64,000 bases of DNA from Nitrosopumilus sp. (lineage in GTDB: Archaea; Thermoproteota; Nitrososphaeria; Nitrososphaerales; Nitrosopumilaceae): contig OZ243974.1 in NCBI GenBank assembly GCA_965214775.1, positions 1,824,001 to 1,888,000 of the forward strand. Reading direction: 5' to 3'. Under the pieces are notes generated by a model that made no database searches, was not told the DNA's origin, and saw only the letters and a list, made by a program, of their open reading frames with translations. Both the position numbers and the translations under genes were made by a program. This document shows positions 26,001 through 48,945 of this stretch, piece after piece. The number at the start of each line of letters is the position of its first letter. Position 1 is the stretch's first letter.

Positions 26001-26355
26001 TGCAAGGGCGCGCGGCCAGGTCCAGATGCTGACCAAGCAGCCTACCGAAGGCAGGGCAAGGGGCGGCGGCCTGAGGTTTGGCGAGATGGAGCGGGACTGC
26101 CTGATTGCATATGGCGCCTCGATGATCCTAAAAGACAGGCTGCTTGACGAGTCTGACAAGTCTGACATCTTTGTCTGTGAGAGGTGCGGCCTGGTCGCAT
26201 ATCACGACGTCAAGCAGAGAAAGTACGTCTGCAGGGTCTGCGGGGACAAGGCCAAGGTGTCATCCGTGTCAGTTGCATACGCATTCAAGCTGCTGCTGCA
26301 GGAAATGCAGAGCCTTAACGTCGCGCCAAGGCTGCTAATCAAGGAGAAGGTGTGA
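23008..26355 (+). CDS. rpoB: RNA polymerase subunit B (Rpo2), unsplit
   Basis: GDKFASRHGQKG, GGLRFGEMERD, ETPEG, C-terminal Zn ribbon. Confidence 0.98.
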   Translation: MADSSTKRWPVIQDILKREGIARQHLNSFDEFLERGLQSIINEVSQIEIENAEYPYKIQLGKVKLQQPRMMELDGSITHITPAEARLRNVSYSAPVMMEASVVEDGKILESRFVHIGDVPVMAKSNACILHNFSTQKLVEHGEDPNDPGGYFIINGSERVIVGLEDLSYNKIIVDRETVGGNIVFKAKVYSSIVGYRAKLELVMKNDGLIVARIPGSPVDIPVVTLMRALGLESDREIAAAVSLVDEIQDELEGSFEKAGDVPTSKDAIVYISKRIAPGMLEEFQIKRAETLLDWGLLPHLGKHPENRKEKAQFLGEAACKLLELRLGWISPDDKDHYGNKVIKFAGQMLADLFRTAFRNLVRDMKYQLERSGQKRGINAVAAAIRPGIISDKLNNAIATGNWGRGRVGVTQLLDRTNYLSTISHLRRIQSPLSRTQPNFEARDLHATHFGRICPSETPEGSNCGLVKNLALSGIISVNVPSEEIVEKLYDLGTVHFFDAKEDLKKDGARVFVDGRLTGYFKDGKQLAESLRELRRNSKIHPHVGVSFHKSEIEGSTRRLYVNCNAGRVLRPLIIIKDNKPLLTQELLDKISKKLLSWTDLLRMGVLEMIDANEEENCYVTLDDKDTKKYTHLEVFPPAILGAGASIIPYPEHNQSPRNTYESAMAKQSLGFSTPMMNTSTYVRQHFMLYPQVPIVNTKAMKLLGLEDRPAGQNCIVAVLPFDGYNIEDAIVLSKASVDRGLGRTFFFRIYDAEAKQYPGGMRDDFEIPNAEENIRGYKGERAYRLLEEDGVVAAESQVRGGDILIGKTSPPRFMEEYREFESSGPYRRDTSIGVRPSETGVVDTVVMTQSNEGGKMYKIRARDMRIPEIGDKFASRHGQKGVLGILAKAEDLPYTASGMSPDVLINPHAFPSRMTVGMMMESICGKAAALRGKRFDGSAFVGEKMDEVKEVMDAHGFKYSGKEIMYDGRTGKPFPVEVFLGVVYYQKLHHMVADKIHARARGQVQMLTKQPTEGRARGGGLRFGEMERDCLIAYGASMILKDRLLDESDKSDIFVCERCGLVAYHDVKQRKYVCRVCGDKAKVSSVSVAYAFKLLLQEMQSLNVAPRLLIKEKV

Positions 26356-29300
26356 TGTCGATTCAGGCAATAAAGTCAATTGACGGAATCAGGTTCTCTG
26401 TTTGGTCTCCCACCGAAATCAGAAAGTACTCCGTGGCAGAGATTACCGCGCCGGAGACCTATGACGAGGACGGGATGCCGGTCCAGGGGGGCCTGATGGA
26501 CGGGCGGCTGGGCACATTGGAGCCCGGACAAAAATGTCTTACATGTGGGAATACTGCTGCAAGGTGTCCCGGTCATTTTGGACACATCGAGCTTGCCGAA
26601 CCGGTATTGCACATTGCGTTTATTGACAATATCTACAAGCTGCTGCAGTCAACGTGCCGCTCCTGTGCAAGACTGAAGGTTCCTCAAGAGGACTTGGAGG
26701 CGTTTAGAAAAATCAAAACAAAAGAGGCAGCATATACAGTAATCTCGCAAAAGCGCATCCCAGAACAAATCATTGAAAAGGCAAAAAAGGCAAAGGAATG
26801 CCCGCACTGCGGCAAGACGCAGTACGAGCTGATCTTCACAAAACCGACCATCTTTGTAGAAAAGACCGAGATCGGGGAGCACAGGCTGCTTCCAATTACA
26901 ATCAGGGAAAGATTCTCACAAATCCTGGATGAGGATTTGGAGTTGCTGTCATATGATCCCGTGACTGCCAGGCCAGAATGGTTCGTCTTGCAGGCACTGC
27001 CCGTCCCTCCGGTCACTGTGAGGCCCTCGATCATTCTTGAGACCGGAATCAGATCCGAGGATGATCTGACACACAAGATGGTCGACATCATCAGAGTCAA
27101 CCAGAGATTAAAGGAGAGCAAGGAGGCCGGAACCCCGCCCCTGATCGTCCAGGACCTGGTTGATCTGCTTCAGTATCATACCACCACATACTTTGACAAC
27201 GAGGTCTCCGGAATCCCGCAGGCCCACCACCGTTCTGGCAGGCCACTTAAGACACTGACCCAGCGACTCAAGGGCAAGGAAGGGCGTTTCAGGGGCTCGC
27301 TGTCCGGAAAGAGGGTCGACTTTTCCAGCAGGACCGTGATCTCGCCTGATCCAAACCTGGATCTATCTGAAGTCGGCGTGCCTGAGGCAGTTGCCATGAA
27401 ACTGACAATTCCCGAAATCGTTACGGAATGGAACATTGAAAGAATGAGAAAGCTCGTAATTAACGGTCCTGATAAATTCCCGGGAGTCAACTATATTGTA
27501 AGGCCTGACGGGGTCAAAATCAGGCTTGACTTTGTCGAGGACCGCTCCACCATTGCAGAGACGCTGGAAATCGGATATCTTGTGGAACGGCACCTTGCAG
27601 ACGGCGACATTGTCATGTTCAACAGGCAGCCGTCACTTCACCAGATGTCCATCATGGCCCACTATGTCAGGGTGCTGCCCGGAAAGACATTCAGGCTGCA
27701 TCCGTCAGTATGCCCCCCCTACAACGCAGACTTTGATGGCGATGAGATGAACCTGCACGTTCCCCAGAGCGAGGAGGCAAGGGCAGAGGCAATTCTTTTG
27801 ATGAGGGTGCAGGATCAACTGATCTCCCCAAGATACGGCGGCCCCATCATTGGCGCGCTCAGGGACTTTGTCACAGGCGCATACCTTCTGACCAAGGAGG
27901 GAACAACGCTGACTCCCCAGGAATTCTCCAATCTTGCAATGCTTGGGGGTTACACCGGCCCGCTTCCAAAGCCTGGAACAAAGACAAAAAACGGCCCTGC
28001 ATATACGGGCAAGCAGCTGTTCTCGCTGTTCCTTCCAAAGGACTTTAACTATGTCATTACATCAAAGTGGTCCAAGGGCACCAAGGGCGTGCAAAACGAC
28101 GTCGTAATCAAGAATGGCCAACTCATCAGCGGCGTAATTGACAAGACATCAATCGGTGCAGAGGAACCGGAAAGCGTCCTGCACAGAATCGCAAAGGACT
28201 ATGGAAATGCCGTCGGCAAGAGCTTTCTGAACTCCATCCTGATCATGGTAAAGCAGTTTATCACCCATTACGGTTTCAGTTACGGGTTTGGCGACCTTGA
28301 GGTTCCAGAGAAGGACAAGCAGCAGATCCTAGACGACATACAGGGAACCTATGATGTTATTGCCGATTTGACCGATCAATACGAAAAGGGCACCCTCAAA
28401 CTGACAAGGGGCATGAGGCCCGAGGAGGCATTGGAGGCCTACATCGTCAACGAGCTGGGCAAGGCAAGGGACAAGGCCGGCTCCACTGCCAATGATTCCC
28501 TTGACGATGAGAATGCCGGAAAAATCATGGCTACTACCGGCGCACGAGGCTCGTCGCTGAACGTGGGCCAGATGGCCGGCGCCCTGGGCCAGCAGTCCAG
28601 AAGGGGAAACAGGCTGCATGACGGCTACAACAACCGTGCCCTGCCGCACTATGCAGAACATGACAACAACCCTGACGCGCACGGGTTTGTAAAGTCCAAC
28701 TATCGCGAGGGGCTCTCTGCACTGGAGTTCTTCTTTCATGCGATGGGCGGACGCGAGGGCCTTGTAGACACTGCAGTCAGAACGCAGCAAAGCGGCTATA
28801 TGCAGCGCAGGCTGATCAACGCCCTGGAGCACATCAGGCTGGAGTATGATGGAACCGTCAGGGATCCGCACGGCCACATCGTACAGTTCCTTTATGGGGA
28901 GGACGGAATCGACGTATCCAAGAGTGATCATGGGGAGGCATTTAACATCAACAGGCTGATCGAATCGCAGACAATCGTCGACTCTGGCAGGAAAGCCAGA
29001 AGAGAGGAGGTTGAAACCCTGACTAAAAAATACACAAAAACCTTCAATCCGAGACTCAAGACGCTTGTCAGTGAGGCATTGCAAGGATCTGGATTGAGCA
29101 GGGACGGCGTTGAGGCAGTATGCAGGAAGGGGCTGTCGCTATTTGACAAATCCAAAGTAGAACCGGGCCAGGCAGTCGGAATCATCACGGCCCAGTCAAT
29201 CGGCGAGCCGGGCACCCAGATGACCCTGAGGACGTTCCACTTTGCAGGAATCAAGGAAAGAAACGTCACCCTGGGCCTTCCAAGGCTGATTGAGCTTGTG

Positions 29301-30146
29301 GATGCCAGAAAAAAGCCCGTTACGCCCACGATGGACATCTATCTTGACGAGGAATCAAAAAAGTCGAGGGAAAAATCAATCGAGGTTGCACGAAACGTGT
29401 TGCAGACCAAGATCAGCGCGTTGATTGCCGACAGCGAGACTGACTATTCGACTGAGATCAGGCTGATCCTCAGCGAGAAGAGACTCGGGGAAAGGGGCTG
29501 CACCATTGCCGATGTGGAGGCCGCGCTGTCCTCGAATAAAAAATTCAAGATGGAGACGACCGGCGAGCTGATTACCCTGAGGCTGGTTGAGGAATCTGAC
29601 GCCCCGACAGTCATTGCAATCAGAAACAAGGTTCTAAATGCTACTGTAAAGGGCGTTCCGGATATTGAGCGCGTCACGCTGGTCCAAAAGGATGACGAGT
29701 GGGTCATCCAGACGACCGGCTCAAACATTGCCAAGGTCCTTGAAGTAAAGGGCATTGACAAGACAAACGTCAGGACAAACAACGTCTTTGAGATTGCGGG
29801 AACACTTGGAATCGAGGCGGCGCGCAATGCCCTGATCAACGAGCTAAACGGCACCCTGGAAGACCAGGGACTGGAGGTTGACAACAGGTACATCATGCTG
29901 GTCTCCGACCTGATGTGCTCAAGGGGATACATGCAGCAGATTGGCAGGCACGGGATTGCCGGCACCAAGGACAGCGTGCTTGCAAGGGCCGCATTTGAGA
30001 TTACCGTTCCTACCATTGCCCATGCCGCACTTGGCGGGGAAGTCGAGCAGCTGAAGGGAATCACAGAAAACGTAATTGTCGGCAGCAACATTCCGATTGG
30101 AAGCGGCACCGTTGATCTGTACATGCAGGTCTCAAAAAAGAAGTGA
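26355..30146 (+). CDS. rpoA1: RNA polymerase subunit A (Rpo1), fused A'/A''
   Basis: YNADFDGDEMN, GEPGTQMTLRTFH and A'' region in a single ORF. Confidence 0.98.
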   Translation: MSIQAIKSIDGIRFSVWSPTEIRKYSVAEITAPETYDEDGMPVQGGLMDGRLGTLEPGQKCLTCGNTAARCPGHFGHIELAEPVLHIAFIDNIYKLLQSTCRSCARLKVPQEDLEAFRKIKTKEAAYTVISQKRIPEQIIEKAKKAKECPHCGKTQYELIFTKPTIFVEKTEIGEHRLLPITIRERFSQILDEDLELLSYDPVTARPEWFVLQALPVPPVTVRPSIILETGIRSEDDLTHKMVDIIRVNQRLKESKEAGTPPLIVQDLVDLLQYHTTTYFDNEVSGIPQAHHRSGRPLKTLTQRLKGKEGRFRGSLSGKRVDFSSRTVISPDPNLDLSEVGVPEAVAMKLTIPEIVTEWNIERMRKLVINGPDKFPGVNYIVRPDGVKIRLDFVEDRSTIAETLEIGYLVERHLADGDIVMFNRQPSLHQMSIMAHYVRVLPGKTFRLHPSVCPPYNADFDGDEMNLHVPQSEEARAEAILLMRVQDQLISPRYGGPIIGALRDFVTGAYLLTKEGTTLTPQEFSNLAMLGGYTGPLPKPGTKTKNGPAYTGKQLFSLFLPKDFNYVITSKWSKGTKGVQNDVVIKNGQLISGVIDKTSIGAEEPESVLHRIAKDYGNAVGKSFLNSILIMVKQFITHYGFSYGFGDLEVPEKDKQQILDDIQGTYDVIADLTDQYEKGTLKLTRGMRPEEALEAYIVNELGKARDKAGSTANDSLDDENAGKIMATTGARGSSLNVGQMAGALGQQSRRGNRLHDGYNNRALPHYAEHDNNPDAHGFVKSNYREGLSALEFFFHAMGGREGLVDTAVRTQQSGYMQRRLINALEHIRLEYDGTVRDPHGHIVQFLYGEDGIDVSKSDHGEAFNINRLIESQTIVDSGRKARREEVETLTKKYTKTFNPRLKTLVSEALQGSGLSRDGVEAVCRKGLSLFDKSKVEPGQAVGIITAQSIGEPGTQMTLRTFHFAGIKERNVTLGLPRLIELVDARKKPVTPTMDIYLDEESKKSREKSIEVARNVLQTKISALIADSETDYSTEIRLILSEKRLGERGCTIADVEAALSSNKKFKMETTGELITLRLVEESDAPTVIAIRNKVLNATVKGVPDIERVTLVQKDDEWVIQTTGSNIAKVLEVKGIDKTNVRTNNVFEIAGTLGIEAARNALINELNGTLEDQGLEVDNRYIMLVSDLMCSRGYMQQIGRHGIAGTKDSVLARAAFEITVPTIAHAALGGEVEQLKGITENVIVGSNIPIGSGTVDLYMQVSKKK

Positions 30147-31023: not shown

Positions 31024-34000
31024 ATGTGGAGGCGGAGAAGGGGAAGTAGGAGGTGGCCTGCCATAGCTGACACACGGCATCACCCATTCCATCGGGCCCC
31101 GGCAGGAATATCTTCCATACACTTGGTGTTCATTGCGGCCGCCGTCCTGGGCCTTGCCTCCGCCGGTGCCCTGCATGGGGAGGAGGCACATGCGCAGCAA
31201 AGCGAGATCGCAGTAGTCGCCGTCGGCAATATGGGAGATAACAGTACCCTGCTGCTTGACGGTGCCCGCGGCGTGGATACGTTTACGATAGGCAGCAACA
31301 CCTACGCCGCAGTTGTCTCTGAAGGCGACAGTGGCATCCAGATCGTAGACGTCACCGATCCTGCAACCCCGACTGCCGTAGGGAATCTGGAGGATGGCAC
31401 CTCTACGCGGCTTCTTGGCGCCCAAGGCGTGGCCGTCTTTACCATAGGCAGCAACACCTACGCCGTAGTGACCTCCTACGACGTTGACTCCGATAACAGC
31501 GGCATCCAAATTGTGAGCGTCACCGATCCTACAACCCCTACCGCCGTCGGGGATCTGGGTGATGACAACTCTAGGGAGCTTAACGGCGCCCAAGGCGTGG
31601 CCGTCTTTACCATAGGCAGCAACACCTACGCTGCAGTGGCCTCCGTCGCGGACCACGGTCTCCAGCTAGTCGATGTCACCGATCCTACAACCCCTACCGC
31701 CGTCGGGGATCTGGGTGATGGTGGCTCCACGCTACTCAGAGGCGCCTCCGGCGTGGCCGTCTTTACGACAGGCAGCAACACCTACGCCGCAGTGACCTCC
31801 TACAATGAAGACGGCCTCCAGATCGTAGACGTTACCGATCCTACAACCCCTACCGGCGTTGGGAATCTGGGTGATGGTGGCTCCCTGGAGCTTGACGGGC
31901 CTCGTGGTGTGGATGTCTTTACCATAGGCAGCAACACCTACGCCGCAGTGGCCTCCTGGCTTGACGACGGCCTCCAGATCGTAGACGTTACCGATCCTAC
32001 AACCCCTACCGGCGTTGGGAATCTGGGTGATGGTGGCTCCCTGGAGCTTGACGGCGCCTATGGTGTGGATGTCTTTACCATAGGCAGCAACACCTACGCC
32101 GCAGTCGCCTCACACACAGACGACGGCCTCCAGATCGTAGACGTTACCGATCCTACAACCCCTACCGGCGTTGGGAATCTGGGTGATGGTGGCTCCTTGG
32201 AGCTTGACGGCGCCCAAGGCGTGGCCGTCTTTACCATAGGCACCAACACCTACGCCGCAGTCGCCTCAAACACCGATGACGGCCTCCAGCTGGTGAGGCT
32301 GGGTGCTGAGGCAGAGACTCCCAACAGCCCGCCTGTGGCACCTGCTACGACGGCCACCACTGCAGAGGATACGCCCGTTACCATAACGCCTGCAATATCG
32401 GATCCCGACACATCGGACACACCGGTGATATCGGCAGTCGATAACCCGCCCAACGGGACTGCCACACATGACGATGATACCATAACCTACACTCCCGATA
32501 CAGACTATGACGGTACGGACGCCTTTACATACACGGTATCTGACGGAACGGACACGGCGCAGGGCACGATAACTGTAACTATAACGCGCGACAACAACGA
32601 CCCCGTCCTCGGTACGATAGGAGACCAGAACGCGACGCCAGACACACAGCTGAGTATAACGCCCACGGTAACTGATGCCGACACAACTGACACGCACAGG
32701 TATTCGATATCGCGCGGCACGCTACCGGCAGCTGCCGCATTCAATACCTCTGATGGTAGCATCACCTGGACGCCTGTTCAGTCAGATGCCGGGCAGACCC
32801 ACACGGTCACCATAACGGTAAGTGACGGCCGCGGCGGCACCGACTCGCAGACCTTTGATATCACCGTGGCCTCCTTGAATGTGATCGAGGTGGCCCCCGT
32901 AGGAAATCTCAAGGATGGCGGCTCCCTACTGCTTGATACGTCCACAAGCGTGGCCGTCTTTGAAATAACCGATGGCGGGAACACCAACACCTACGCCGCA
33001 GTGACCTCCTTTGCCGACAACGGCCTCCAGATTGTGGACGTCACGAACCCGGCCCAGCCGAGGGCAGTCGGAAACCTGGAAGACACCGAGCCTGCAAACC
33101 CGGGTGAGGACGAACTGCTGCTTGACGGTGCCTTTGGCGTAGACGTCTTCACGACAGGCGGCAAGACATATGCTGCAGTCGCATCCTCCAATGACGGCGG
33201 CCTCCAGATTGTGGACGTCACTGACCCCGCCAGTCCCGCCGCCGCAGGAAGCCTAGCCGATAACAACACCCTGCTGCTTGACGGCGCCTCCCGCGTGAAG
33301 GTCTTCACGATAGGCGCCAACACCTACGCCGCAGTCACCTCCTCCTTTGCCGACAGCGGCCTCCAGATTGTGGACGTCACCGACCCGTCCGCCCCGGCAG
33401 CCGCCGGAAACCTGGAGGACGACAACGACCTGCTGCTTGCCGACACCCAATACGTAGACATCTTTGAAACAAACAGCAGAACCTACGCCGCAGTGGCCTC
33501 CGAATCAGACGACGGCCTCCAGATTGTGGACGTCACCGACCCATCCGCCCCGGCAGCCGCCGGAAACCTAGAGGATGACGGCTCCAGGCTGCTTGACAGC
33601 GCCCACGGCGTGGATGTCTTTACGATTGGACAAAGAACATACGCGGCGGTGACAAGTGGCGGTGACGACGGCCTCCAGATTGTGGACATCACCAACCCGT
33701 CCGCCCCGGCAGCCGCCGGAAACCTGGAGGATGACAACTCCCTGAAGCTTGGAAACGCCTATGGAGTGGACGTCTTTACGATAGGCGCCAACACCTACGC
33801 CATAGTCGCATCCTTTGCCGACGACGGCCTCCAGATTGCAGACATAACCGATCCCGACAATCCGAAAGCGGCCGGGCAGCTGGAGGACACCAGCGATCTG
33901 TTGCTTGCTACCGCCTTTGACGTGGACGTCTTTACAATAAATGCCGCCACCTATGCGGTGGCAACAGCCAGGGACGACCATGGAATCCAGATAGTGAGGC

Positions 34001-37000
34001 TGGATGCGGCAGATGCCACAAACGCCCCGCCGGTGGCACCCGCCGAGACGGCTACCACGCCAGAGGACACACCCGTGACCATAACGCCTGCCATTTCGGA
34101 TCCCAACGTATCGGACACACCGGTAATATCGGCAGTCGATGATCCGCCAAACGGGACTGCCACACATGATGATACTACGATAACGTATACGCCTGATCAG
34201 GACTATAACGGAACAGATACCTTCGGATATACGGTATCTGATGGAACAGACACGACACAGGGCACGATAACTGTAACCGTAACGCGCGACAACAATAACC
34301 CCGTCCTAGAGAAAATAGGCAAGCAAACCGTGGTGGCCGGTGCACAGCTGAGCATAACGCCCACGGTGACTGACGCCGATCCGACCGATACGCACACGTA
34401 TTCCATTCGGATCAAGGATGGCACGCTTCCAGTATCTGCAATATTCACGTCATCTGACGGGAGCCTCGTCTGGACGCCGGCTCCGTCCGATGCAGGAACC
34501 TACAAGGTTACCATAACCGTAGATGACGGCCGCGGAGGCAGAGGCTTGACGGGCTTTGACATAACAGTGACCCCCGCGGATCCGATCGCGGTTACCCCCG
34601 TCGGGAGTCTGGGGGATAACAGTACCCTGCTGCTCGGTGGCCCCAGAAGTGTGAGCGTCTTTGAGATAGGCGGCAGTACATATGCCGCAGTGACTGCCGG
34701 GGCCGACGATGGCCTCCAGCTAGTCGACGTCACCAACCCTGCCAGTCCGGCGCCAGTCGGGCAGCTTGCAGACACCGAACCGGACGGACTGCTGCTCAAC
34801 GGAGCCTACAATGCGGCCGTCTTTACCGTGGGTGCCAGCACCTACGCCGCAGTAGTAGGCAACCTAGACCACGGCCTCCAGATCGTGGACGTGACAGATC
34901 CTACCAGCCCGGAGGAGGCAGGACAGCTTGCCGACGACGAGGATCCCGGTGACGAGCTGCTGTTCCGCGGACCCAGGGGCGTGGACACCTTTACGGCGGG
35001 CAGTGACACCTATGCGGTGGTGACAGGCGGCTCGGACAACGGCATCCAGATAATCGACATCACCGATCCAGACAGTCCGGTCGCCGCAGGAAAGATGCGC
35101 GATAACGGCTCCAGACTGCTTGAAGGCACCTACGACGTGGCCGTCTTTGAGATAGGCGCCAAGACCTACGCCGTCGTGGCCTCCTATGGCGAGGACGGCA
35201 TCCAGATAATCGACATCTCCAATCCAGACGGTCCGACTACGGCCGGCAGTCTGAAAGATGGGGGCTCCCTGGAGCTTGACGGCGCCAGAGGAGTGGCCGT
35301 CTTTGAGATAGGCGCCAACACCTACGCCGCAGTGGCCTCCATTGAGGACGACGGCATCCAGATAATCGACATCTCCAATCCCGCCAGTCCGGTAGCGGCC
35401 GGGAAGCTGGCCGATGGGGGCTCTAGGGAGCTTGACGGCGCCGTCGACGTGGACGTCTTTACCATGGGCACCAGCACCTACGCCGTGGTAGCCTCCGCCA
35501 ACGACGACGGCATCCAGATCGTGGATGTCTCCAATCCCGCCAGTCCGACTGCGGCCGGGAAGCTGAGCAGGGGCTCCCTGGAGCTTGACGGCGCCACCGG
35601 CGTGGACGTCTTTGAGATAGGCACCAGCACCTACGCCGTGGTGGCCTCCCGTACAGACAACGGCATCCAGATCGTGGAGCTCTCAGTCGTAGACGACACA
35701 AGGCCCGAGTTTGCATCAGCTACGCTAGACGGCAACACTGGCGCCATAACCATTACATTCAGCGAGACAGTAGACATCTCTGAGACCGACCTGTCCCAGA
35801 TGTACGTCAGTGATACAAACGAGACAAACACCGTCTCACTGGCCGGCGCCGACTTTGATGATGCCGCGGCCGATTCGGATACCATACAAATAGATCTTGC
35901 AAGCTCACAACGGACAGCGATCGATCTGATGACGACCCCGCAGCTCGACATCGCCGCAGGTGCCGTATCTGACCTGTCTAGAAACCTGATAGATGCCGCG
36001 GCCGACAACACGATCACGACGGCCAGCCCGGACAGCCCGATACCCTCCGGAAGGCTGCCTGACAGTGCAAGTCTGATACTTGAAAAGTCCCGCAGCGTGG
36101 ATACCTTTACAATAGGAAGCAATGTCTACGCCGTCTCCGTCTCCAGCACCGAGGACGGATTCCAGATTGTCGACATCAGCAGGCCCGACAAACCCAGGGG
36201 TCTCGGCAATCTGGTAGATTCTAACCTGCCCCAACGGCTGCTTGACGGCGCCCGCGGCGTGGCAACCTTCACTGCAGGCAGCAACACCTACGCGGCAATA
36301 GCCTCCCATGCCGACGACGGCATCCAGGTATTCAGCGTCTCGGATCTTGCGCATCCGCAGCCTGCCGGAAATCTGGAAGATAACGGCTCCCGCCTGCTTG
36401 ACGGCGCCACCGGCGTAGCCACCTTTACGATAGGCAGCAACACCTACGCGGCAGTCACCTCACAGCACGACGGCGGCCTCCAGCTTGTAAATGTCACCGA
36501 TCCCAGCAGTCTGACGGCACCCGGAAAGCTGGAAGACGGCGGCTCCAGACTGCTTGCTGATACCTCCTCTGTGGACACCTTCAAGAGGGGCGGCTCTACA
36601 TATGCAGTAGTGGCCTCGTGGGGAGATGACGGCCTTGAGATCATAGACGTCAGCAACCCGTCCAGTCCTGCAGAGACGGGACGGCTGGCAGACGACAGTG
36701 ACATGCTACTCAAGGGAATCCGCGCCGTGGATGCCTTCGAGGCGGGAGGCTCTGCATACGTGGCAGTGGCGTCACATGGTGAAAACGGCCTCCAGATCGT
36801 GGACGTCTCGGATCCTGCCAATCCGTCACCTGCCGGAAAGCTGGCAGACGGCGGCGACCGGCTGCTTGGCGGGGCCAGCGGCGTGGAGATATTCTGGGTG
36901 GGTCAGGCAATCTACGCCGCAGTGGCCTCCCAGTCTGATGACGGCCTCCAGATCGTGGACGTCTCGGATCCGGATAATCCTGCAGAGGCCGGATCCCTGA

Positions 37001-40000
37001 GGGACGGCCCGAGACTATCGCTTGATGCGGCCCGAGATCTGTCCGTGTTCACCCGCGGTGGGGCCCAGTACGCCGTGGTGGCCTCTGACACGGAGGGCCT
37101 CCAGATTGTAAAGCTTGCAGAGAGCACAAGGCCCGCCTTTGCATCTGCGATCCTTGACGGGAACACGGGGGCCATGACTATCACGTTTGCCGATGTCATA
37201 GATGTCTCTGAGACAGACCTGTCAAAGCTGTACATCAGCGATATAAACGAGACAAACGCCGTCTCGCTGGCCGGCGCCGGCTTTGACGACGCTGCGGCCG
37301 ACTCCGATACCATACGGCTGAGGCTCACCGGACCTCAACTGGCAGGAATCGCCCCAATCGTGACTGTACAGCTGGACATAGCAGCAGACGCCGTATCGGA
37401 CCTGTCCGGAGGCCATATCAGGGATTCACCGGACAACCCGATTACGACGGCCAGCCCGGACAGCCCGATCCCCTCCGGAATGCTGCCCGACAATGCCCAG
37501 CTGCTTCTTGGCGGCGCCTACGGCGTGGATGTCTTCACTGAAGACGGCAAGACCTACGCGGCAGTGGCCTCCAGCGATGAGAACGGCCTCCAGATAATAG
37601 ATATAACCGATCCCGACAATCCGACAGCGGCCGGACGGCTTGCAGATGCCACCGACCTGCTGCTTGACGGGGCCAACGCCGTGGCCGCCTTTAGAATAGA
37701 CTCGAATACCTACGCCGCCGTGCCCTCCGGCAGCGAGGGCGGCCTCCAGATTGTAGATATAACCGATCCCGACAATCCGACAGCGGCCGGGAATCTTGAA
37801 GACACCGAGCCTGCAAACCCGGGTGAGGACGAGCTGCTGCTTGGTGGAGCCGGCGGAGTGGAGATATTCCAAGTGGGATCTGACGTCTACGCCGCAGTGA
37901 CATCCAACACCGAGGGCGGCCTCCAGATTGTAGATATAACCGATCCCGACAATCCGACAGCGGCCGGACAGCTTGCAGATGCCAACGACCTGCTGCTTGA
38001 CGCCCCCCTCGGCGTGGATGTCTTTCCGATAGGCGGCAAGATCTACGCGACTATGACATCGACATCCAACGGCAAGGCCGGCCTCCAGATAATAGATATA
38101 ACCGATCCCGACAATCCGACAGCGGCCGGGCAGCTTGCAGATGCCAACAACCTGCTGCTTGAGGGAACCATTGGCGTGGATGTCTTTACGATAGGCACCA
38201 AGACCTATGCCGCAGTGTCCTCCGTTGTTGAACACGGCCTCCAGATAATAGACGTCTCTGATCCCGACAATCCGGCAGCGGCAGGACGTCTTGCAGACAC
38301 CACCGACCTGCTGCTTAGAAACGCCCAAGGCGTGGATATCTTTACGACAGAAGATGGCACCTACGCGGCCGTCACCTCCGAATTCGGCGGCCTCCAGATA
38401 ATAGACGTCTCTGATCCCGACAATCCGGCAGCGGCAGGACAGATTGCAGATGATACCGACCTGCTGCTTAGAGTCACCTACGACGTGGCCGTGTTCCTGA
38501 ACGGCGGGGACACGTATGCAGTGGTGACAACCGACATGGAGGGCCTTCAGATTGTAAAGCTTGCAGAGGTTACAGACGCGACCCACAACAGCGCCCCCGT
38601 CCTGGGTACGATAGGCGACCAGAACGCGATGCCAGACACACAGCTGACCATAACGCCTACCGTAACTGACGCCGACACAACTGACACGCACACTTATTCG
38701 ATATCGCGCGGCACACTGCCGGCAGCTGCCGTATTCAACACCTCTGATGGTAGCATCACCTGGACGCCCGTACAGGCCGATGCAGGACAGACCCACACGG
38801 TCACCATAACGGTAAATGACGGCCGCGGCGGCACCGACTCGCAAACCTTTGACATAGTCGTGGCAGAGACACCCAACAATCCGCCGGTGGCACCAAACGA
38901 GACGGCAACCACCGCAGAGGACACGCCCGTTACCATAACGCCTGTAATATCGGATCCAGACACATCGGACACACCTGTAATATCGGCAGTAGAGAACCCG
39001 CCAAACGGGACTGCCACCCATGATGATGATACGATAACGTATACGCCTGATCAGGACTATGACGGTACGGACACGTTCGGATATACGGTATCTGATGGAA
39101 CAGACACGGCGCAGGGAACCGTAACGGTAACCGTAACGCGCGACAACAGCGCCCCCGTAATGGGTACAATAGGCGACCAGAACGCGACGCCCGGCATACA
39201 GCTGGTCATAACGCCCACGGTAACTGACGATGATCCGACTGACACGCACACGTATTCCATATCGCGCGGCACGCTGCCGGCAGCTGCCGTATTTACCACC
39301 TCTGGCGGCACCCTCATCTGGACGCCCGTGCAGGCCGACGCAGGACAGACACACACGGTCACCATAACCGTAGATGACAGCCGCGGCGGCACCAACTCGC
39401 AAACCTTTGACATAGTCGTGGCCGACATGGACACCTCTGAAATCACGCTTACCCCCGTCGGGAATCTGAATGATACCGGCTCCAGAGAACTTGACGACGC
39501 CCAAGGCGTGGCCGTCTTTGCGATCGGGCAGAACACATACGCTGCAGTCGCCGCATCCCGGGACGACGGCCTCCAGATTATTAACATCACAGATCCATCC
39601 AATCCGACAGCTGCCGACAGCCTGGGGGATAACAACACCCTGCTGCTTGGTGGCGCCAGCAGCGTGGACATATTTGCTATAGGGGCTAACACCTACGCCG
39701 CAGTGGCCTCCTCCGCCGATGACGGCCTCCAGATTATCGATGTCACAAACCCTTCCAGTCTTGTGGCAGTCGGGAATCTGGAAGATACCATAGATGAGGT
39801 GGGGGACATTCCGATAGAAGGATTTTTGCTTGACGGCGCCAGCAGCGTGGACATCTTTACAATAAACGGCAGCACCTACGCCGCAGTGGCCTCCTCCGCC
39901 GATGACGGCCTCCAGATTATCGATGTCACAAACCCTGCCAGCCCTGACGCTGCCGGCAGCCTGGGGGATAACAGCACCCTGCGGCTTGACGGCGCCAACG

Positions 40001-42909
40001 CAGTGACCATCTTTGGGATAAATTCGAGTATCTACGCCGCAGTGGCCTCCTTTGCCGATGACGGCCTCCAGATTGTCGATGTCACAAACCCTGCCAGCCC
40101 TGCCGCTGCCGGCAGCCTGGGGGATAACAACACCCTGCGGCTTGACGGCCCTCAAGGCGTGACCACCTTTGTGATAGGCAGCAGCACCTACGTGGCGATA
40201 TCCTCACAGACAGACAGCGGCCTCCAGATCATCGATGTCACAAACCCTGCCAGCCCCGCCGCCGCCGGCAGCCTTGCAGACACGAACTCACTATTGCTTG
40301 ACAACGTCAACGGTATAGATGCCTTTATGATGGGCAACACCACCTACGTGGCAGCTGCCTCCTTTGTCGAGAAAGGCCTCCAGATTATCGACGTCACCGA
40401 TCCTGCCGGCCCGGTAGGTGCCGGGAATCTTGCAGACACGACCTCCCTGCTGCTTGATGGCCCGCGCGACGTGGACATATTCACGATAGGCAGCAGCACC
40501 TACGCCGCAGTGGCATCCGAATACGATGACGGTCTGCAGGTGGTGAGGCTAGATGAGGCCGCATCCAGCATCCCGCCTGTCATATCACTTGTGGGAGACA
40601 ACCCGTTGATCCATGAGCTGGGCACCCCGTACGCAGATCCGGGTGCCACGACCGACGACGGTTCTGAAGTCACAACGGATACATCACAGGTCGACGTCAA
40701 CGTGCTCGGGGATTATCTGGTCACATATACTGCCACCGACGATGACGGCAACACGGCAACGGCGATCAGGATAGTGTATGTGCGCGATACCGCCCCCCCG
40801 ACATTTGAGTCTGCAACCCTTAATGTGAACACGGGTGCCATGACCATAACCTTCAGCGAGACGATAGCCGTATCGACAACCAACCTGTCCCTGCTGTACG
40901 TCAGCGACATAAACCAGGAAGATACCGTCCTGCTGGAAGGCGCCGGCTTTGACGATGCGACACTCGATACAGAGACCCTCTCACTCACGCTTGTAGAGTC
41001 CCAGCTGACGCAGATAATCCCGATGGACACGCCGCAGCTCGACATTTCCTCTGGTGCCGTATCTGATATACACGGCAACCAGATAGGGGACTCGCCGGAT
41101 AACCCGATCACGGTAACCGCAGACGACCCAGGGCCCTCCTTTGAATCGGCGACCCTTGACGAGAACACGGGTGCCATGACCATAACCTTCAGCGAGACCG
41201 TAGACGTCTCTGCTACCAGCCTGTCCCTGCTGTATGTCAGTGACATAAACCAGGCAGACACAGTCCCGCTGACAGGCGCCGAATTTGACTTTGCATCCGC
41301 TGATGTTGAGACCCTTTCACTTACCCTGACAGGATCCCAGATACGGCAGATAACCCCGATGGATATACCGCAGCTCGATATTGCAGCCGGCGCCGTATCT
41401 GATCTGCTGGGCAACCAGATAGACGACTCACTGGATAATCCGATCACCATAACTGTCACTGAGAGACCCACCTTTGAATCGGCTACCCTTGACGAGAACA
41501 CGGGTGCCATGACCATAACCTTCAGCGAGACCGTAGACGTCTCGACTGCAAATCTGTCCCTGCTGTACATCAGCGATATAAACGAGGCAGACACGGTCCC
41601 GCTGGCCGGCGCCGAGTTTGACTTTGCATCCGCTGATGTTGAGACCCTTTCCCTCACGCTTGCAGAGTCCCAGATACAACAGGTGACTCCGATGGGTACG
41701 CCGCAGCTCGATATTACAGCCGGCGCCGTATCTGATCTGCTGGGCAACCAGATAGAAGAATCGCAGGACAACCCGATCACGGTCACGGGACACGTCCAGA
41801 CCGATGACGGCGATGATGGCAGTACCGGATCGACGTCGTCTGCCGGTCGCAGCAGCAGCAGCGGAGGCGGCGGCAGAGGCGGAGGCGGAGGCGGCATCAA
41901 CATCATTTCCTCCACGACCGGCCCGGGTTCTGCATACATAGCATCCATATCGTGGGACTGTACTGCCGGACTCGTAATGATAACTGCCGGACCTTCCTCT
42001 GATGATCTCTCGGTCTTGGTGCGCACCGCCACAAACGGCATCGCTAGGACTACGGCAGCAGGCCAGACGTCCGACGGGTTGGCGGTGTTTACGGCACCGA
42101 TGCGCGAGAACGAGACGTACATCAGTGTCAGCGCAATCCTGCAACATGGAAGGAACATAGACTCTGACTCCAAGTCGATAAACGTGGATTCCTGCATCGG
42201 CGAGCGCACATACGAAGTTCCGACGTCCATGTCAACGGCCGGTATCAATGGAGGGACAGCAGGCCAGCCGGGCGATGGGGACACCGGGATCATCGAGCCA
42301 CCGGCGCCAAGCCAGCCAGATACCGTGACACGACAGCCAGAGCCAGATACTGAGCCAGAACAGCCGGCGCCAAGCGAGCCAGATACTGAGCCAGAACAGC
42401 CGGCGCCAAGCGAGCCAGATACCGTGATGACACCACCACAACCACCACCACCACTCCCACCAGATACCGGGACTGATTCCGGCGGCTCATGCCTGATAGC
42501 GACTGCCGCATATGGCACCGAGCTGGCACCGCAGGTACAGGCACTCAGGGAGGTACGCGACGTCACGCTGCTCTCGACGGACTCGGGCGCCTCATTCGTT
42601 GCCGGATTCAACTCCGTATACTATTTGTTCTCACCTGCGATAGCCGACCTGGAGCGCCAGAATCCGGTATTGCGCGATGCCATAAGGATTGCCATCACCC
42701 CGATGATCTCGACGCTGTCGATAATGTCGCTTGCAGAGGAGGGCTCCGAACCGTCTGTTTTGGCACTGGGTGTCTCAGTCATTGCACTCAATATCGGCAT
42801 GTATGTGGTAGCTCCGGCAGCCGTTGCCGTCGTGGCAGCCCGGCGGCTGCAGGACAGATGCAATATCTGCAAATCTGATCCGAAATTAGCAAATCCTGCT
42901 CGCGCATAA
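31024..42909 (+). CDS. Giant (3961 aa) surface protein: six LVIVD-like 7-repeat beta-propeller blocks, Ig/cadherin-like domains, DUF5011-like domain, CFI-box-CTERM anchor
   Basis: 42 copies of ~52-aa repeat (..YAAVAS..DDGLQIVDVTDP..), Ig-like spacers (TYTPD..G.DTF.YTVSDG; WTP...DAG), CLIATAAYGTELAPQVQ plus TM tail; start codon uncertain. Confidence 0.9.
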   Translation: MWRRRRGSRRWPAIADTRHHPFHRAPAGISSIHLVFIAAAVLGLASAGALHGEEAHAQQSEIAVVAVGNMGDNSTLLLDGARGVDTFTIGSNTYAAVVSEGDSGIQIVDVTDPATPTAVGNLEDGTSTRLLGAQGVAVFTIGSNTYAVVTSYDVDSDNSGIQIVSVTDPTTPTAVGDLGDDNSRELNGAQGVAVFTIGSNTYAAVASVADHGLQLVDVTDPTTPTAVGDLGDGGSTLLRGASGVAVFTTGSNTYAAVTSYNEDGLQIVDVTDPTTPTGVGNLGDGGSLELDGPRGVDVFTIGSNTYAAVASWLDDGLQIVDVTDPTTPTGVGNLGDGGSLELDGAYGVDVFTIGSNTYAAVASHTDDGLQIVDVTDPTTPTGVGNLGDGGSLELDGAQGVAVFTIGTNTYAAVASNTDDGLQLVRLGAEAETPNSPPVAPATTATTAEDTPVTITPAISDPDTSDTPVISAVDNPPNGTATHDDDTITYTPDTDYDGTDAFTYTVSDGTDTAQGTITVTITRDNNDPVLGTIGDQNATPDTQLSITPTVTDADTTDTHRYSISRGTLPAAAAFNTSDGSITWTPVQSDAGQTHTVTITVSDGRGGTDSQTFDITVASLNVIEVAPVGNLKDGGSLLLDTSTSVAVFEITDGGNTNTYAAVTSFADNGLQIVDVTNPAQPRAVGNLEDTEPANPGEDELLLDGAFGVDVFTTGGKTYAAVASSNDGGLQIVDVTDPASPAAAGSLADNNTLLLDGASRVKVFTIGANTYAAVTSSFADSGLQIVDVTDPSAPAAAGNLEDDNDLLLADTQYVDIFETNSRTYAAVASESDDGLQIVDVTDPSAPAAAGNLEDDGSRLLDSAHGVDVFTIGQRTYAAVTSGGDDGLQIVDITNPSAPAAAGNLEDDNSLKLGNAYGVDVFTIGANTYAIVASFADDGLQIADITDPDNPKAAGQLEDTSDLLLATAFDVDVFTINAATYAVATARDDHGIQIVRLDAADATNAPPVAPAETATTPEDTPVTITPAISDPNVSDTPVISAVDDPPNGTATHDDTTITYTPDQDYNGTDTFGYTVSDGTDTTQGTITVTVTRDNNNPVLEKIGKQTVVAGAQLSITPTVTDADPTDTHTYSIRIKDGTLPVSAIFTSSDGSLVWTPAPSDAGTYKVTITVDDGRGGRGLTGFDITVTPADPIAVTPVGSLGDNSTLLLGGPRSVSVFEIGGSTYAAVTAGADDGLQLVDVTNPASPAPVGQLADTEPDGLLLNGAYNAAVFTVGASTYAAVVGNLDHGLQIVDVTDPTSPEEAGQLADDEDPGDELLFRGPRGVDTFTAGSDTYAVVTGGSDNGIQIIDITDPDSPVAAGKMRDNGSRLLEGTYDVAVFEIGAKTYAVVASYGEDGIQIIDISNPDGPTTAGSLKDGGSLELDGARGVAVFEIGANTYAAVASIEDDGIQIIDISNPASPVAAGKLADGGSRELDGAVDVDVFTMGTSTYAVVASANDDGIQIVDVSNPASPTAAGKLSRGSLELDGATGVDVFEIGTSTYAVVASRTDNGIQIVELSVVDDTRPEFASATLDGNTGAITITFSETVDISETDLSQMYVSDTNETNTVSLAGADFDDAAADSDTIQIDLASSQRTAIDLMTTPQLDIAAGAVSDLSRNLIDAAADNTITTASPDSPIPSGRLPDSASLILEKSRSVDTFTIGSNVYAVSVSSTEDGFQIVDISRPDKPRGLGNLVDSNLPQRLLDGARGVATFTAGSNTYAAIASHADDGIQVFSVSDLAHPQPAGNLEDNGSRLLDGATGVATFTIGSNTYAAVTSQHDGGLQLVNVTDPSSLTAPGKLEDGGSRLLADTSSVDTFKRGGSTYAVVASWGDDGLEIIDVSNPSSPAETGRLADDSDMLLKGIRAVDAFEAGGSAYVAVASHGENGLQIVDVSDPANPSPAGKLADGGDRLLGGASGVEIFWVGQAIYAAVASQSDDGLQIVDVSDPDNPAEAGSLRDGPRLSLDAARDLSVFTRGGAQYAVVASDTEGLQIVKLAESTRPAFASAILDGNTGAMTITFADVIDVSETDLSKLYISDINETNAVSLAGAGFDDAAADSDTIRLRLTGPQLAGIAPIVTVQLDIAADAVSDLSGGHIRDSPDNPITTASPDSPIPSGMLPDNAQLLLGGAYGVDVFTEDGKTYAAVASSDENGLQIIDITDPDNPTAAGRLADATDLLLDGANAVAAFRIDSNTYAAVPSGSEGGLQIVDITDPDNPTAAGNLEDTEPANPGEDELLLGGAGGVEIFQVGSDVYAAVTSNTEGGLQIVDITDPDNPTAAGQLADANDLLLDAPLGVDVFPIGGKIYATMTSTSNGKAGLQIIDITDPDNPTAAGQLADANNLLLEGTIGVDVFTIGTKTYAAVSSVVEHGLQIIDVSDPDNPAAAGRLADTTDLLLRNAQGVDIFTTEDGTYAAVTSEFGGLQIIDVSDPDNPAAAGQIADDTDLLLRVTYDVAVFLNGGDTYAVVTTDMEGLQIVKLAEVTDATHNSAPVLGTIGDQNAMPDTQLTITPTVTDADTTDTHTYSISRGTLPAAAVFNTSDGSITWTPVQADAGQTHTVTITVNDGRGGTDSQTFDIVVAETPNNPPVAPNETATTAEDTPVTITPVISDPDTSDTPVISAVENPPNGTATHDDDTITYTPDQDYDGTDTFGYTVSDGTDTAQGTVTVTVTRDNSAPVMGTIGDQNATPGIQLVITPTVTDDDPTDTHTYSISRGTLPAAAVFTTSGGTLIWTPVQADAGQTHTVTITVDDSRGGTNSQTFDIVVADMDTSEITLTPVGNLNDTGSRELDDAQGVAVFAIGQNTYAAVAASRDDGLQIINITDPSNPTAADSLGDNNTLLLGGASSVDIFAIGANTYAAVASSADDGLQIIDVTNPSSLVAVGNLEDTIDEVGDIPIEGFLLDGASSVDIFTINGSTYAAVASSADDGLQIIDVTNPASPDAAGSLGDNSTLRLDGANAVTIFGINSSIYAAVASFADDGLQIVDVTNPASPAAAGSLGDNNTLRLDGPQGVTTFVIGSSTYVAISSQTDSGLQIIDVTNPASPAAAGSLADTNSLLLDNVNGIDAFMMGNTTYVAAASFVEKGLQIIDVTDPAGPVGAGNLADTTSLLLDGPRDVDIFTIGSSTYAAVASEYDDGLQVVRLDEAASSIPPVISLVGDNPLIHELGTPYADPGATTDDGSEVTTDTSQVDVNVLGDYLVTYTATDDDGNTATAIRIVYVRDTAPPTFESATLNVNTGAMTITFSETIAVSTTNLSLLYVSDINQEDTVLLEGAGFDDATLDTETLSLTLVESQLTQIIPMDTPQLDISSGAVSDIHGNQIGDSPDNPITVTADDPGPSFESATLDENTGAMTITFSETVDVSATSLSLLYVSDINQADTVPLTGAEFDFASADVETLSLTLTGSQIRQITPMDIPQLDIAAGAVSDLLGNQIDDSLDNPITITVTERPTFESATLDENTGAMTITFSETVDVSTANLSLLYISDINEADTVPLAGAEFDFASADVETLSLTLAESQIQQVTPMGTPQLDITAGAVSDLLGNQIEESQDNPITVTGHVQTDDGDDGSTGSTSSAGRSSSSGGGGRGGGGGGINIISSTTGPGSAYIASISWDCTAGLVMITAGPSSDDLSVLVRTATNGIARTTAAGQTSDGLAVFTAPMRENETYISVSAILQHGRNIDSDSKSINVDSCIGERTYEVPTSMSTAGINGGTAGQPGDGDTGIIEPPAPSQPDTVTRQPEPDTEPEQPAPSEPDTEPEQPAPSEPDTVMTPPQPPPPLPPDTGTDSGGSCLIATAAYGTELAPQVQALREVRDVTLLSTDSGASFVAGFNSVYYLFSPAIADLERQNPVLRDAIRIAITPMISTLSIMSLAEEGSEPSVLALGVSVIALNIGMYVVAPAAVAVVAARRLQDRCNICKSDPKLANPARA

Positions 42910-44153: not shown

Positions 44154-45341
44154 GTGATAGACCTTGTCCTTCTTTTGATTCCCCTGCTGGTATTTTCTGC
44201 ATTTGCAGAAGAAAAAATTCCTGATTATGACAAGCCCTTTGCGCCAATATTTACCGACAAGCCATCCTACAGCTGGACTGACAAAGTCAAAATTACGATT
44301 CTGGCGCCTAGCTGGAACACCAACAAAAATCTGATTGACTCGATTGGCGGTGTGAAATCCCACCCGATCAAAATTTCCACAGGCAAGCATTCTCTAGACC
44401 AGTACAGGTTTACTGAAACTGGAGCCAATTCTGGAGTCTTTTCAGCACAAGTTACACTGTCTGGCTTTCTGCATGATGCAAACGGCGATGGCAACTTTGA
44501 TACTGCCCCGAAAACTTCTGGAAGCGGACCAAATAACGGATTCCTAGAGGCAGACAGGGATTCTTCAGTCACCATATCCTTTGAGTTTGCCGACGGTGTT
44601 GTGCTGACCAAATCGGTTCCCGTCTCGTGGAACGTTGCAACAATCCAGTTTGCAAATGACGAGTTTTTTTCTAACGAGCAAATTGCCGTCAAAGTCGTTG
44701 ACGTTGACATGAATCTAAATCCCGAGGCGATTGATCAAGTACCAATTCAACTCTACTCCGGCTCTGATGCTGCGGGAACTGTTCTTGATGCTACTGAAAC
44801 CTCGGAAAATTCCGGAGTTTTTGTAGGGACGATTTCCTTGTCTCAAAGTTCCACTTCGGGTGGAGGCAGACTGTATTCTGTACCAGGTGATCAGGTTTTT
44901 GCAAAATATGACGACTATACCCTTCCCAAACCATATTCTATGTCTGATAGTGTCAAACTAGTAACCTCGGCACGGATTGACTCGTCAATTCCCCCTATTG
45001 AAAGAATTGGCAATTCACCTGTCAAATTATCTGATAGTTTTGGAAACGAACTGAACTCTTTTTCAACAAATAACCAGTTGCAGATTGTCGGCACCATAAC
45101 AAACACGCAGGAGCATAAGCAAAGTTTTGTTTACTTTTTCCAGGTAAAAAATTCTGATGGCTCCACTGAATCCATTGCATGGATAAGAGGGGAACTAAAC
45201 GCACATCAGACGCTTGACGTCTCACATTCATGGATCCCCAAAAAATCCGGCGACTATGAAATCCAGACATATGTTTGGAATTCAATAGGTGATCCTACCG
45301 CATTAGGGCCAGAGATGTCTGCTGCGATTAGCGTAAACTAA
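44154..45341 (+). CDS. Exported thaumarchaeal hypothetical protein
   Basis: Signal peptide, repeated ETxxNSGVF motifs, Ig-like C-terminal domain. Confidence 0.78.
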   Translation: MIDLVLLLIPLLVFSAFAEEKIPDYDKPFAPIFTDKPSYSWTDKVKITILAPSWNTNKNLIDSIGGVKSHPIKISTGKHSLDQYRFTETGANSGVFSAQVTLSGFLHDANGDGNFDTAPKTSGSGPNNGFLEADRDSSVTISFEFADGVVLTKSVPVSWNVATIQFANDEFFSNEQIAVKVVDVDMNLNPEAIDQVPIQLYSGSDAAGTVLDATETSENSGVFVGTISLSQSSTSGGGRLYSVPGDQVFAKYDDYTLPKPYSMSDSVKLVTSARIDSSIPPIERIGNSPVKLSDSFGNELNSFSTNNQLQIVGTITNTQEHKQSFVYFFQVKNSDGSTESIAWIRGELNAHQTLDVSHSWIPKKSGDYEIQTYVWNSIGDPTALGPEMSAAISVN

Positions 45342-48035: not shown

Positions 48036-48500
48036 ATGACACAATCCATCAAACTGACAACCGATCAAATGCGCATGATGTCCCTTTTCCAAAACGTCAC
48101 CGGCGCAACGGCGCGCGACTGCGTTGAGGATGAAAAACAGGACAGGGTGATCTTTGTTGTAAACACGGGAAAGATGGGACTGGCAATCGGAAGGGGCGGC
48201 ACCCACATCAAGTCGCTTCAAAACATTGTAAAGAGAAACGTCGAACTAGTTGAGTTTGACGAGGATCCCGCAAAATTTTTGTCCAACCTGCTAAACTCAA
48301 AACTGGTCTCCGAGGTAAAAATAGGCAAGCGGGCCGATGGCTCAAAGCAGGCAATAGTTGTCGTAGACCCGCGCAAAAAGGGAATTGTAGTAGGAAGGGA
48401 AGGCAGAAATGCCGAAAAGGCAAGGATGCTTGCAAAGCGATACTTTGACATTGCCAGCGTACTGATTAACAGCCCTGAAAAGGCAACACTGGAGATGTAG
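48036..48500 (+). CDS. nusA: NusA-like transcription factor (KH domains)
   Basis: MGLAIGRGG and GIVVGREGRN KH motifs. Confidence 0.93.
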   Translation: MTQSIKLTTDQMRMMSLFQNVTGATARDCVEDEKQDRVIFVVNTGKMGLAIGRGGTHIKSLQNIVKRNVELVEFDEDPAKFLSNLLNSKLVSEVKIGKRADGSKQAIVVVDPRKKGIVVGREGRNAEKARMLAKRYFDIASVLINSPEKATLEM

Positions 48501-48503
48501 GAA

Positions 48504-48941: not shown

Positions 48942-48945
48942 GGAA

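Follow-up and report, generated by a model that had tools for sequence, protein, structure and literature searches.

A window of 64,000 nucleotides from the genome of Nitrosopumilus sp. (GenBank assembly GCA_965214775.1, contig OZ243974.1, positions 1,824,001 to 1,888,000) carries a giant gene built from repeated units of the LVIVD family, which we describe here in window coordinates unless the genome is named. The gene is a single open reading frame of 3961 residues on the forward strand (31024-42909) and contains all of the repeat blocks; its start codon is taken as predicted, within a stop-to-stop frame that runs from 30883. Assembled as one contig of 2.83 Mb, the genome is 99.9% complete and encodes archaeal AmoA, which identifies the organism as an ammonia-oxidising archaeon, a member of a group of great importance in the nitrogen cycle.

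A motif scan together with MAFFT alignment delineated six blocks of seven units (31192-40551), exactly 42 units in total and each about 52 residues long, and a hidden Markov model (HMM) built from the 42 units recovered the identical 7+7+7+7+7+7 pattern, while Tandem Repeats Finder reported a 156-base period in several blocks. This arrangement, first described in a sequence-only reading of the window, is borne out further by a Pfam score far beyond chance, since LVIVD (PF08309) matched the protein with 300.1 bits (E=1.4e-91, gathering threshold 20.2). The NCBIfam model TIGR04312 ‘choice-of-anchor B’ scored 300.4 bits (E=2e-89, cut-off 100) over 11 stretches. EPTP (PF03736) reached 174 bits for the whole protein, but no single stretch passed and its matches coincide with those of LVIVD.

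The six LVIVD propellers alternate with Ig-like spacers (Big_9, Cadherin_5, He_PIG and Bact_surface_Ig-like in Pfam), and a 111-residue domain with weak resemblance to Big_5 occurs between propellers 3 and 4, between propellers 4 and 5, and in three further copies after propeller 6. At the C-terminus, a CFI-box-CTERM domain (NF041770, 69 bits, cut-off 40, residues 3823-3895) is followed by a hydrophobic helix at residues 3912-3939. The strongest hydrophobic 19-mer of the protein lies at residues 3912-3930 and the second strongest at residues 32-50, so that the latter may serve as a signal peptide and the helix as a membrane anchor; these two segments and the CFI-box domain together suggest a location at the cell surface. 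The features of the gene, all on the forward strand, are as follows.

31024..42909, forward: whole gene, 3961 residues (open reading frame and HMM scan)
31117..31173, forward: signal-peptide-like hydrophobic core, residues 32-50, with an Arg-rich stretch before it (hydrophobicity)
31192..32301, forward: propeller 1, seven LVIVD units, residues 57-426 (alignment, AlphaFold2, Foldseek)
32302..32880, forward: Ig-like spacer pair 1 (Big_9/Cadherin_5 and He_PIG), residues 427-619 (Pfam; best He_PIG stretch 527-616)
32881..34002, forward: propeller 2, residues 620-993 (alignment, HMM)
34003..34569, forward: Ig-like spacer pair 2, residues 994-1182 (Pfam)
34570..35682, forward: propeller 3, residues 1183-1553 (alignment, HMM)
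35683..36015, forward: 111-residue spacer domain, copy a (weak Big_5 match, E=0.0011, 20.1 bits, below the cut-off of 23.6)
36016..37116, forward: propeller 4, residues 1665-2031 (signature class common to propellers of three other genes in the genome)
37117..37443, forward: 111-residue spacer domain, copy b
37444..38562, forward: propeller 5, residues 2141-2513 (alignment, HMM)
38563..39426, forward: three Ig-like spacers (He_PIG, Big_9/Cadherin_5, He_PIG), residues 2514-2801 (Pfam; best Big_9 stretch 2618-2703)
38585..41444, forward: duplicated segment, with copies in two other genes of the genome (DNA comparison)
39427..40551, forward: propeller 6, residues 2802-3176 (alignment, HMM)
40582..40782, forward: Bact_surface_Ig-like (PF16403), residues 3187-3253 (Pfam)
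40804..41783, forward: three tandem copies of the 111-residue spacer domain (333-base period, 82% matches)
42314..42422, forward: Pro/Glu/Thr-rich linker from 27- and 36-base tandem repeats
42490..42708, forward: CFI-box-CTERM, residues 3823-3895 (NF041770)
42757..42840, forward: putative C-terminal membrane helix, residues 3912-3939, followed by a basic 22-residue tail (hydrophobicity)

The 36-base tandem repeat is perfect (42340-42422, 2.3 copies, 100% matches) and encodes the linker ahead of the CFI-box.

Fold of the repeat blocks and position of the variable residues

An AlphaFold2 model of block 1, computed from an alignment of 56 sequences (the six blocks and 50 of 120 listed homologues), is a confident seven-bladed propeller with 28 strands in seven units (pLDDT 96.6, pTM 0.94), that is, four beta-strands per repeat, and all top matches of this model in Foldseek are likewise seven-bladed. 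The EPTP chains of LGI1 occupy ranks 1-7 (E about 1e-14, TM 0.72), followed at ranks 8-9 by the Sphingobium phosphotriesterase (5hrm/5ioj) and after these by many WD40 proteins. A search of the PDB with a single sequence gave no matches, and the family profile retrieved eight chains at E up to 10, with 5hrm/5ioj as the only solved protein below E=0.01 (E=0.00099 and 0.0019); this protein carries LVIVD-like motifs. The blocks start with the innermost strand and stop one strand short, which fits a closure of the LGI1 type.

The sequence-only reading had pointed to two fixed variable places, the residues after LLDG and the dipeptide in VAS-XX-DDG, and these hold the three columns of highest entropy, both in the 42 units of the gene and in all 252 units of the genome. 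In the gene itself, the two X residues are the most variable (3.71 and 3.21 bits, 15 and 12 residue types), followed by the second residue after LLDG (3.12 bits, 12 types); genome-wide, HMM columns 42, 43 and 24 lead with 3.85, 3.66 and 3.29 bits. Every dipeptide that had been listed for VAS-XX-DDG is present. We define the signature of a propeller as its residues at columns 24, 42 and 43, three positions per blade and 21 per propeller, and that of propeller 1 reads R-EG Q-YD Q-VA S-YN R-WL Y-HT Q-NT. Two other parts of the description had to be narrowed. The near identity of neighbouring units in DNA holds only for units B1R5 to B1R7 (83-92%), the mean being 0.66 within blocks and 0.62 between them; in the closest pair, B1R5/B1R6 (92% DNA identity), 10 of the 13 differing bases fall within four codons at the two variable places. 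The constancy of the scaffold was overstated, as about ten further columns reach 2.2-2.6 bits in this gene and, genome-wide, column 13 (3.28 bits) almost equals column 24, with five further columns at 2.9-3.1 bits. Aromatic residues make up 23% of column 24 and 33% of column 42, against 2-3% of the other variable loop columns and 7% overall.

According to DSSP on the block 1 model, a strand of nine residues has column 24 in second place, and the four-residue turn behind the next strand comprises columns 42-45. Loops two steps apart in an up-down blade meander point to one side, so that the strand start at column 24 and the turn at columns 42-45, two loops apart, should share one propeller face. 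We also aligned the family profile with one LGI1 blade (offset 217), where Arg330, Lys331, Asp334 and Glu336 (PMC5906670) land exactly on aligned letters. In this alignment, which is weak (chain E 0.11, stretch E 0.3), Arg330 and Lys331 fall on unit columns 21 and 22, Asp334 and Glu336 on columns 25 and 27, and Lys353 at about column 44, roughly two residues beyond column 42. In LGI1, Arg330, Lys331 and Lys353 contact ADAM22, and Asp334 and Glu336 are calcium ligands inside the central channel (PMC5906670). The position of the calcium ligands would mark the strand from column 23 as the innermost one, and signature columns 24, 42 and 43 would then lie at the inner rim of the channel on the ligand face. 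The earlier suggestion that the variable loops cluster on one face like a binding surface gains from the DSSP topology, the weak LGI1 alignment, the aromatic residues and the conservation of signature sets described below; as for the structural mapping itself, block 1 is the confident propeller, on which the variable sites were placed by DSSP secondary structure.

A ten-gene family and its counterparts in related genomes

An HMM scan of the genome found ten LVIVD frames with 252 units, which correspond to 36 propellers, and block sizes are multiples of seven in all ten genes (7, or 14 where two propellers adjoin), as they are in 7 of 7 proteins of a related genome. Seven of the ten giant frames terminate in a CFI-box, a domain with 15 matches in the genome, 14 of them over the cut-off. 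The window itself contains a second CFI-box-CTERM protein, a 359-residue frame at 6513-7592 on the forward strand.

The 36 propellers carry 35 distinct signatures, which group into 29 signature classes. Propeller 4 and one propeller in each of three other genes have 12-18 of 20 signature residues in common, whereas their other variable columns are only 38-61% identical, with DNA identity of 71-85%. Other propeller pairs at similar DNA identity (0.70-0.73) have 0-7 of 20-21 signature residues in common. Signature conservation is bimodal: a signature is either retained as a set, more than the scaffold around it, or wholly different. Two further genes in the genome have propellers of the same class as propeller 6.

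Several signatures in the genome are rich in His and Arg, which, together with the profile and Foldseek matches to 5hrm/5ioj, would fit metal-dependent catalysis by some or all of the propellers, as in the Sphingobium sp. TCM1 phosphotriesterase, with the variable residues tuning substrate pockets. A 2016 study by Mabanglo and colleagues reportedly describes, going by its title, a binuclear metal centre in a seven-bladed propeller. We regard an enzymatic role as improbable here, as the proteins have no conserved constellation of potential metal ligands, the 36 propellers spread over 29 signature classes, and no enzyme family in Pfam or NCBIfam matched the 3961-residue protein. Moreover, an arrangement of six propellers along an Ig-spaced stalk is typical of adhesins.

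Several findings support an exchange of sequence both within loci and among paralogous ones. The 2860-base segment at 38585-41444 is 95.0% identical, without gaps, to genome positions 416748-419607 (reverse strand), and 92.4% identical over 2524 bases to genome positions 2825052-2827575 (reverse strand). Units that are 96-100% identical are found across different genes, and identical patches in neighbouring units as well as a mosaic with breaks at domain edges, both described below, belong to the same set of evidence. The ratio of nonsynonymous to synonymous rates (omega, NG86) in the duplicated segment is 0.65 for propeller 6, 0.15 for the Ig-like spacers and 0.31 for the downstream domains.

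A search with propeller 1 found matches in 6 of 30 other genomes (6 of 18 from the same genus and 0 of 12 from other genera). The best match in those genomes is 46-48% identical, as against up to 63% for paralogues within the genome. RpoA is 91% identical in the five relatives tested. A protein search revealed a closer relative, a 3.2-Mb contig encoding at least seven such proteins, and we compared it at the protein level through seven of its longer proteins. One of these, P0124, is colinear with residues 53-2525 of the giant protein, with the following identities.

Propeller 1: 0.63
Spacer pair 1: 0.98
Propeller 2: 0.99
Spacer pair 2: 0.995
Propeller 3: 0.63
Propeller 4: 0.97
Propeller 5: 0.94

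The drops at propellers 1 and 3 have sharp boundaries at domain edges. No close counterpart of propeller 6 occurs in these seven proteins (best 0.63). Overall, 14 of the 36 propellers of the genome have a partner at 0.90 or above among these proteins, and the 14 shared propellers keep 266 of 279 signature residues. In P0123, P0124 and P0125 of the relative, the last propeller carries one common signature, just as propeller 6 shares its class with propellers of two other genes here. Copies in the same genome thus resemble one another more than they do their equivalents in the other genome, which points to concerted evolution.

As for the genomic setting, the giant gene is flanked by rpoB-rpoA on one side and by a KH-domain (NusA-like) gene, then S12 and S7, on the other. 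Together with three more frames, it lies between rpoB-rpoA (23008-30146) and the KH-domain/S12/S7 side (48036-49545), and the stretch that separates S12 from the end of rpoA measures 18.4 kb here versus about 1.0, 2.5, 2.9, 4.1 and 7.3 kb in five relatives. In the relative G018, a 931-residue frame with LVIVD matches begins directly behind rpoA. A 395-residue frame just downstream of the giant gene (44154-45341, forward) matches no Pfam family and gives only faint hints of CARDB and of a haemolysin-type calcium-binding related domain (E about 0.2), and a 516-residue frame farther on (51596-53146, forward) carries the transposase domains DDE_Tnp_1 and DDE_Tnp_1_5. Two antisense open frames inside the giant gene (37426-40155, reverse, 909 residues; 40713-42611, reverse, 632 residues) most likely result from its GC-rich, repetitive make-up and do not count as evidence of genes. 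We also considered a foreign origin of the giant gene from its GC content (0.56-0.61 versus 0.47 for the genome) and rejected it: its GC content at third codon positions (GC3), 0.66, resembles that of native genes, the RNA polymerase A frame having 0.65, and the GC excess lies in codon positions 1 and 2, which points to amino-acid composition as its source.

A probable binding repertoire, selection and gene conversion

From the predicted fold and the domain matches, we consider the region to be probably the ligand-binding part of a giant membrane-anchored surface protein with six distinct propeller faces, in other words a repertoire of binding modules, for which a glycan, a protein, a mineral, another cell or a virus are conceivable ligands. 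This reading draws on the anatomy of the gene, the fold, the secondary-structure site of the variable positions, the size of the family, the bimodal signatures and the mosaic relation to the relative, and from these we infer surface display, a binding function and the assignment of the face. Ig-like spacers would separate six propellers of the LVIVD/EPTP type along a stalk with a CFI-box and a membrane helix at its end, and each propeller would present its own face at the mouth of the central channel, set mainly by residue 2 of the innermost strand together with residues 1 and 2 of the next B-C turn. The repertoire of 36 propellers in ten genes would have arisen via duplication and would be partly homogenised by gene conversion, and whole propeller cassettes appear to be reshuffled between paralogues and between related genomes. 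The diversified binding surface proposed from the sequence alone stays the best reading in this form, with diversification by duplication and cassette exchange in place of hypermutation.

Selection was assessed on independent pairs of units by simple counting in three identity bands, without site models and with recombination ignored; an all-against-all comparison of nonsynonymous and synonymous differences per site (pN/pS) among the 42 units had been dropped as saturated and non-independent. Outside the signature codons, pN/pS is 0.50, 0.59 and 0.54 in the three bands. Codons with an amino-acid change stand to those with only synonymous change as 42:6 in the signature versus 222:115 elsewhere in the second band (p=0.0024), and as 116:14 versus 835:450 in the third (p=2e-9).

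Several observations weigh against a repertoire of binding faces. At the signature codons themselves, pN/pS is 1.15 in the closest band (22 pairs, 88-99.9% identity), 0.70 in the second (23 pairs) and 0.77 in the third (57 pairs), and the contrast in changes is only borderline in the closest band (11:1 versus 58:35, p=0.054). Many of the changed signature codons differ at two or three bases, and such changes may be copied patches rather than new mutations. Units B6R2 and B6R3 bear identical patches at the signature sites, where their duplicates in two other genes differ, so that patchy gene conversion is active and blurs any codon test. In the 14 propellers shared with the relative, change amounts to 13/279 at the signature (4.7%), 67/1138 in other loops (5.9%) and 80/3528 in the core (2.3%). 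In the protein-level comparison, a swap and fast divergence both fit the differences at propellers 1 and 3. The predicted face assignment is built on topology and on the LGI1 alignment with its E of 0.11, and loops of the opposite face vary too, columns 4, 5, 7, 33 and 34 reaching 2.6-2.95 bits across the 252 units. The codon-level check that the sequence-only reading had called for is therefore answered in part: amino-acid changes are in excess at signature codons, but pN/pS there is never clearly above 1, and positive selection is unproven.

This excess in the second and third bands, and the fact that entire propellers differ between close genomes, would also be expected of a receptor or decoy in an arms race, with face residues changing fast now under pressure from viruses or predators or through a dedicated mutator. 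We hold such a role to be very unlikely. The reverse transcriptase RVT_1 has no matches in the 99.9%-complete single-contig genome, with control genomes positive, which makes a diversity-generating retroelement or other dedicated mutator an unlikely candidate; omega is not above 1; and in the 14 shared cassettes the signature changes no faster than other loops (p=0.47). This low rate indicates that signatures are stable at short range and that large differences come as whole propellers. The term ‘hypervariable’, in the sense of ongoing fast change, therefore has to be given up for these positions, and they should be described as specificity-determining and stable within a cassette.

Variation in public reads was too weak to be used as evidence. 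Part of the stretch is contained in 15 listed runs from 10 studies, with no RNA runs among them, and in the four runs inspected for variation the short-read contigs span about 190-960 bases, paralogue cross-mapping is possible, and 40 of 232 differences were seen. Upstream of the duplicated segment, 2 of the 18 differences seen fell on signature codons, both in one contig. In run X8, one contig skips precisely a single 156-base unit of propeller 3 (35193-35350), with 32 bases shared at the joint, and is either a six-unit variant or an assembly collapse.

The signature ratios of about 0.7-1.15 are also what unconstrained sites would give, and they could be reconciled with a structural surface matrix or spacer that has no specific ligand and in which the variable positions would be no more than the loop residues under the weakest constraint, drifting neutrally. 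Every loop varies to some degree, and the consensus of the wider LVIVD family has no majority residue at the signature positions, as such drift would have it. We nevertheless find neutral drift unlikely, for the signature sets in four genes are kept above their scaffold, the 14 cassettes common with the relative retain nearly all of their signature residues, and aromatic residues are in roughly tenfold excess over other variable loops.

If the propellers are indeed binding modules, the locus supplies a testable map of three positions per blade on one presumed face, with 29 signature classes, and the class conserved in four genes is a natural first target for binding assays. The suggested mode of repertoire change is the exchange of whole propellers between nearly identical flanks, not point hypermutation. 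The literature searched held little on the attachment of ammonia-oxidising archaea to particles, partners or hosts, or on their virus receptors.

Comparison with known systems

The LVIVD repeat (PF08309, COG5276) owes its definition to a study of surface proteins from archaea and bacteria (Adindla et al., 2004; PMC2447325), and a later paper names LVIVD among the repeat families without known structure (PMC8078820). A role in attachment is offered as a guess in one paper, and in the literature searched no function is assigned to the family. For the CFI-box and ‘choice-of-anchor B’ domains nothing was found there, nor, judged by titles, anything relevant on propeller surface proteins of Thaumarchaeota or Nitrososphaera. 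The giant protein resembles the family in its repeat scores, four strands per unit, seven-bladed propeller and predicted surface location, and differs from it in having six propellers per chain, with 36 in ten genes, units of 52 residues versus 42 in the Pfam model, and the CFI-box-CTERM as probable anchor. Such propellers are widespread on archaeal and bacterial surfaces, and the only solved relative that the sequence search recovered is an enzyme.

The closest structural match is the EPTP domain of LGI1, known in complex with ADAM22 (PDB 5Y2Z, 5Y31, 8HPY; PMC5906670), which gives the best TM score and is closed by an N-terminal strand and the last three strands. The Pfam EPTP model scores on the giant protein as a whole, which makes its propellers no more than candidate members of the EPTP family proper. 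Unlike the archaeal protein, LGI1 is a secreted vertebrate protein with one propeller and an LRR domain, and its sequence identity to the repeats is about 10%. The Sphingobium sp. TCM1 phosphotriesterase (5HRM, 5IOJ) is the closest solved protein by profile, seven-bladed and with LVIVD-like motifs; in contrast to the proteins described here, which lack conserved candidate metal ligands, it is a single-domain enzyme. The repeat-variable residues of TAL effectors, variable LRR receptors and the top-face ‘hot-spots’ of WD40 proteins all combine a constant scaffold with specificity at a few fixed positions, although they have other folds and ligands, and nothing in our propellers indicates a code of one residue to one ligand.

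The closest known way of working is that of the HNWD/NWD family of WD40 proteins in Podospora anserina (het-d, het-e), which comprises ten genes that exchange repeats within and between loci, with four face positions under positive selection (Paoletti et al., 2007; PMC1805685). The two systems have in common the number of genes, the exchange of propeller repeats and a few variable face positions per repeat. HNWD proteins are cytoplasmic, consist of WD40 repeats and vary in repeat number, whereas ours are LVIVD proteins, presumably extracellular, that always have seven units per propeller; positive selection is established in HNWD and not here, homogenisation of the repeats here is far weaker, at a mean DNA identity of 66%, and exchange appears to proceed by whole propellers. 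We put forward, as a tentative possibility, that ammonia-oxidising archaea might use combinatorial surface recognition, in which about 36 cassettes per genome, with 21 face residues each and six on the stalk, would move between paralogues and between strains, and related cells would in this way display different sets. If true, the fungal WD40 non-self repertoire would have an archaeal counterpart outside the cell, serving the recognition of kin, partners, hosts or viruses.

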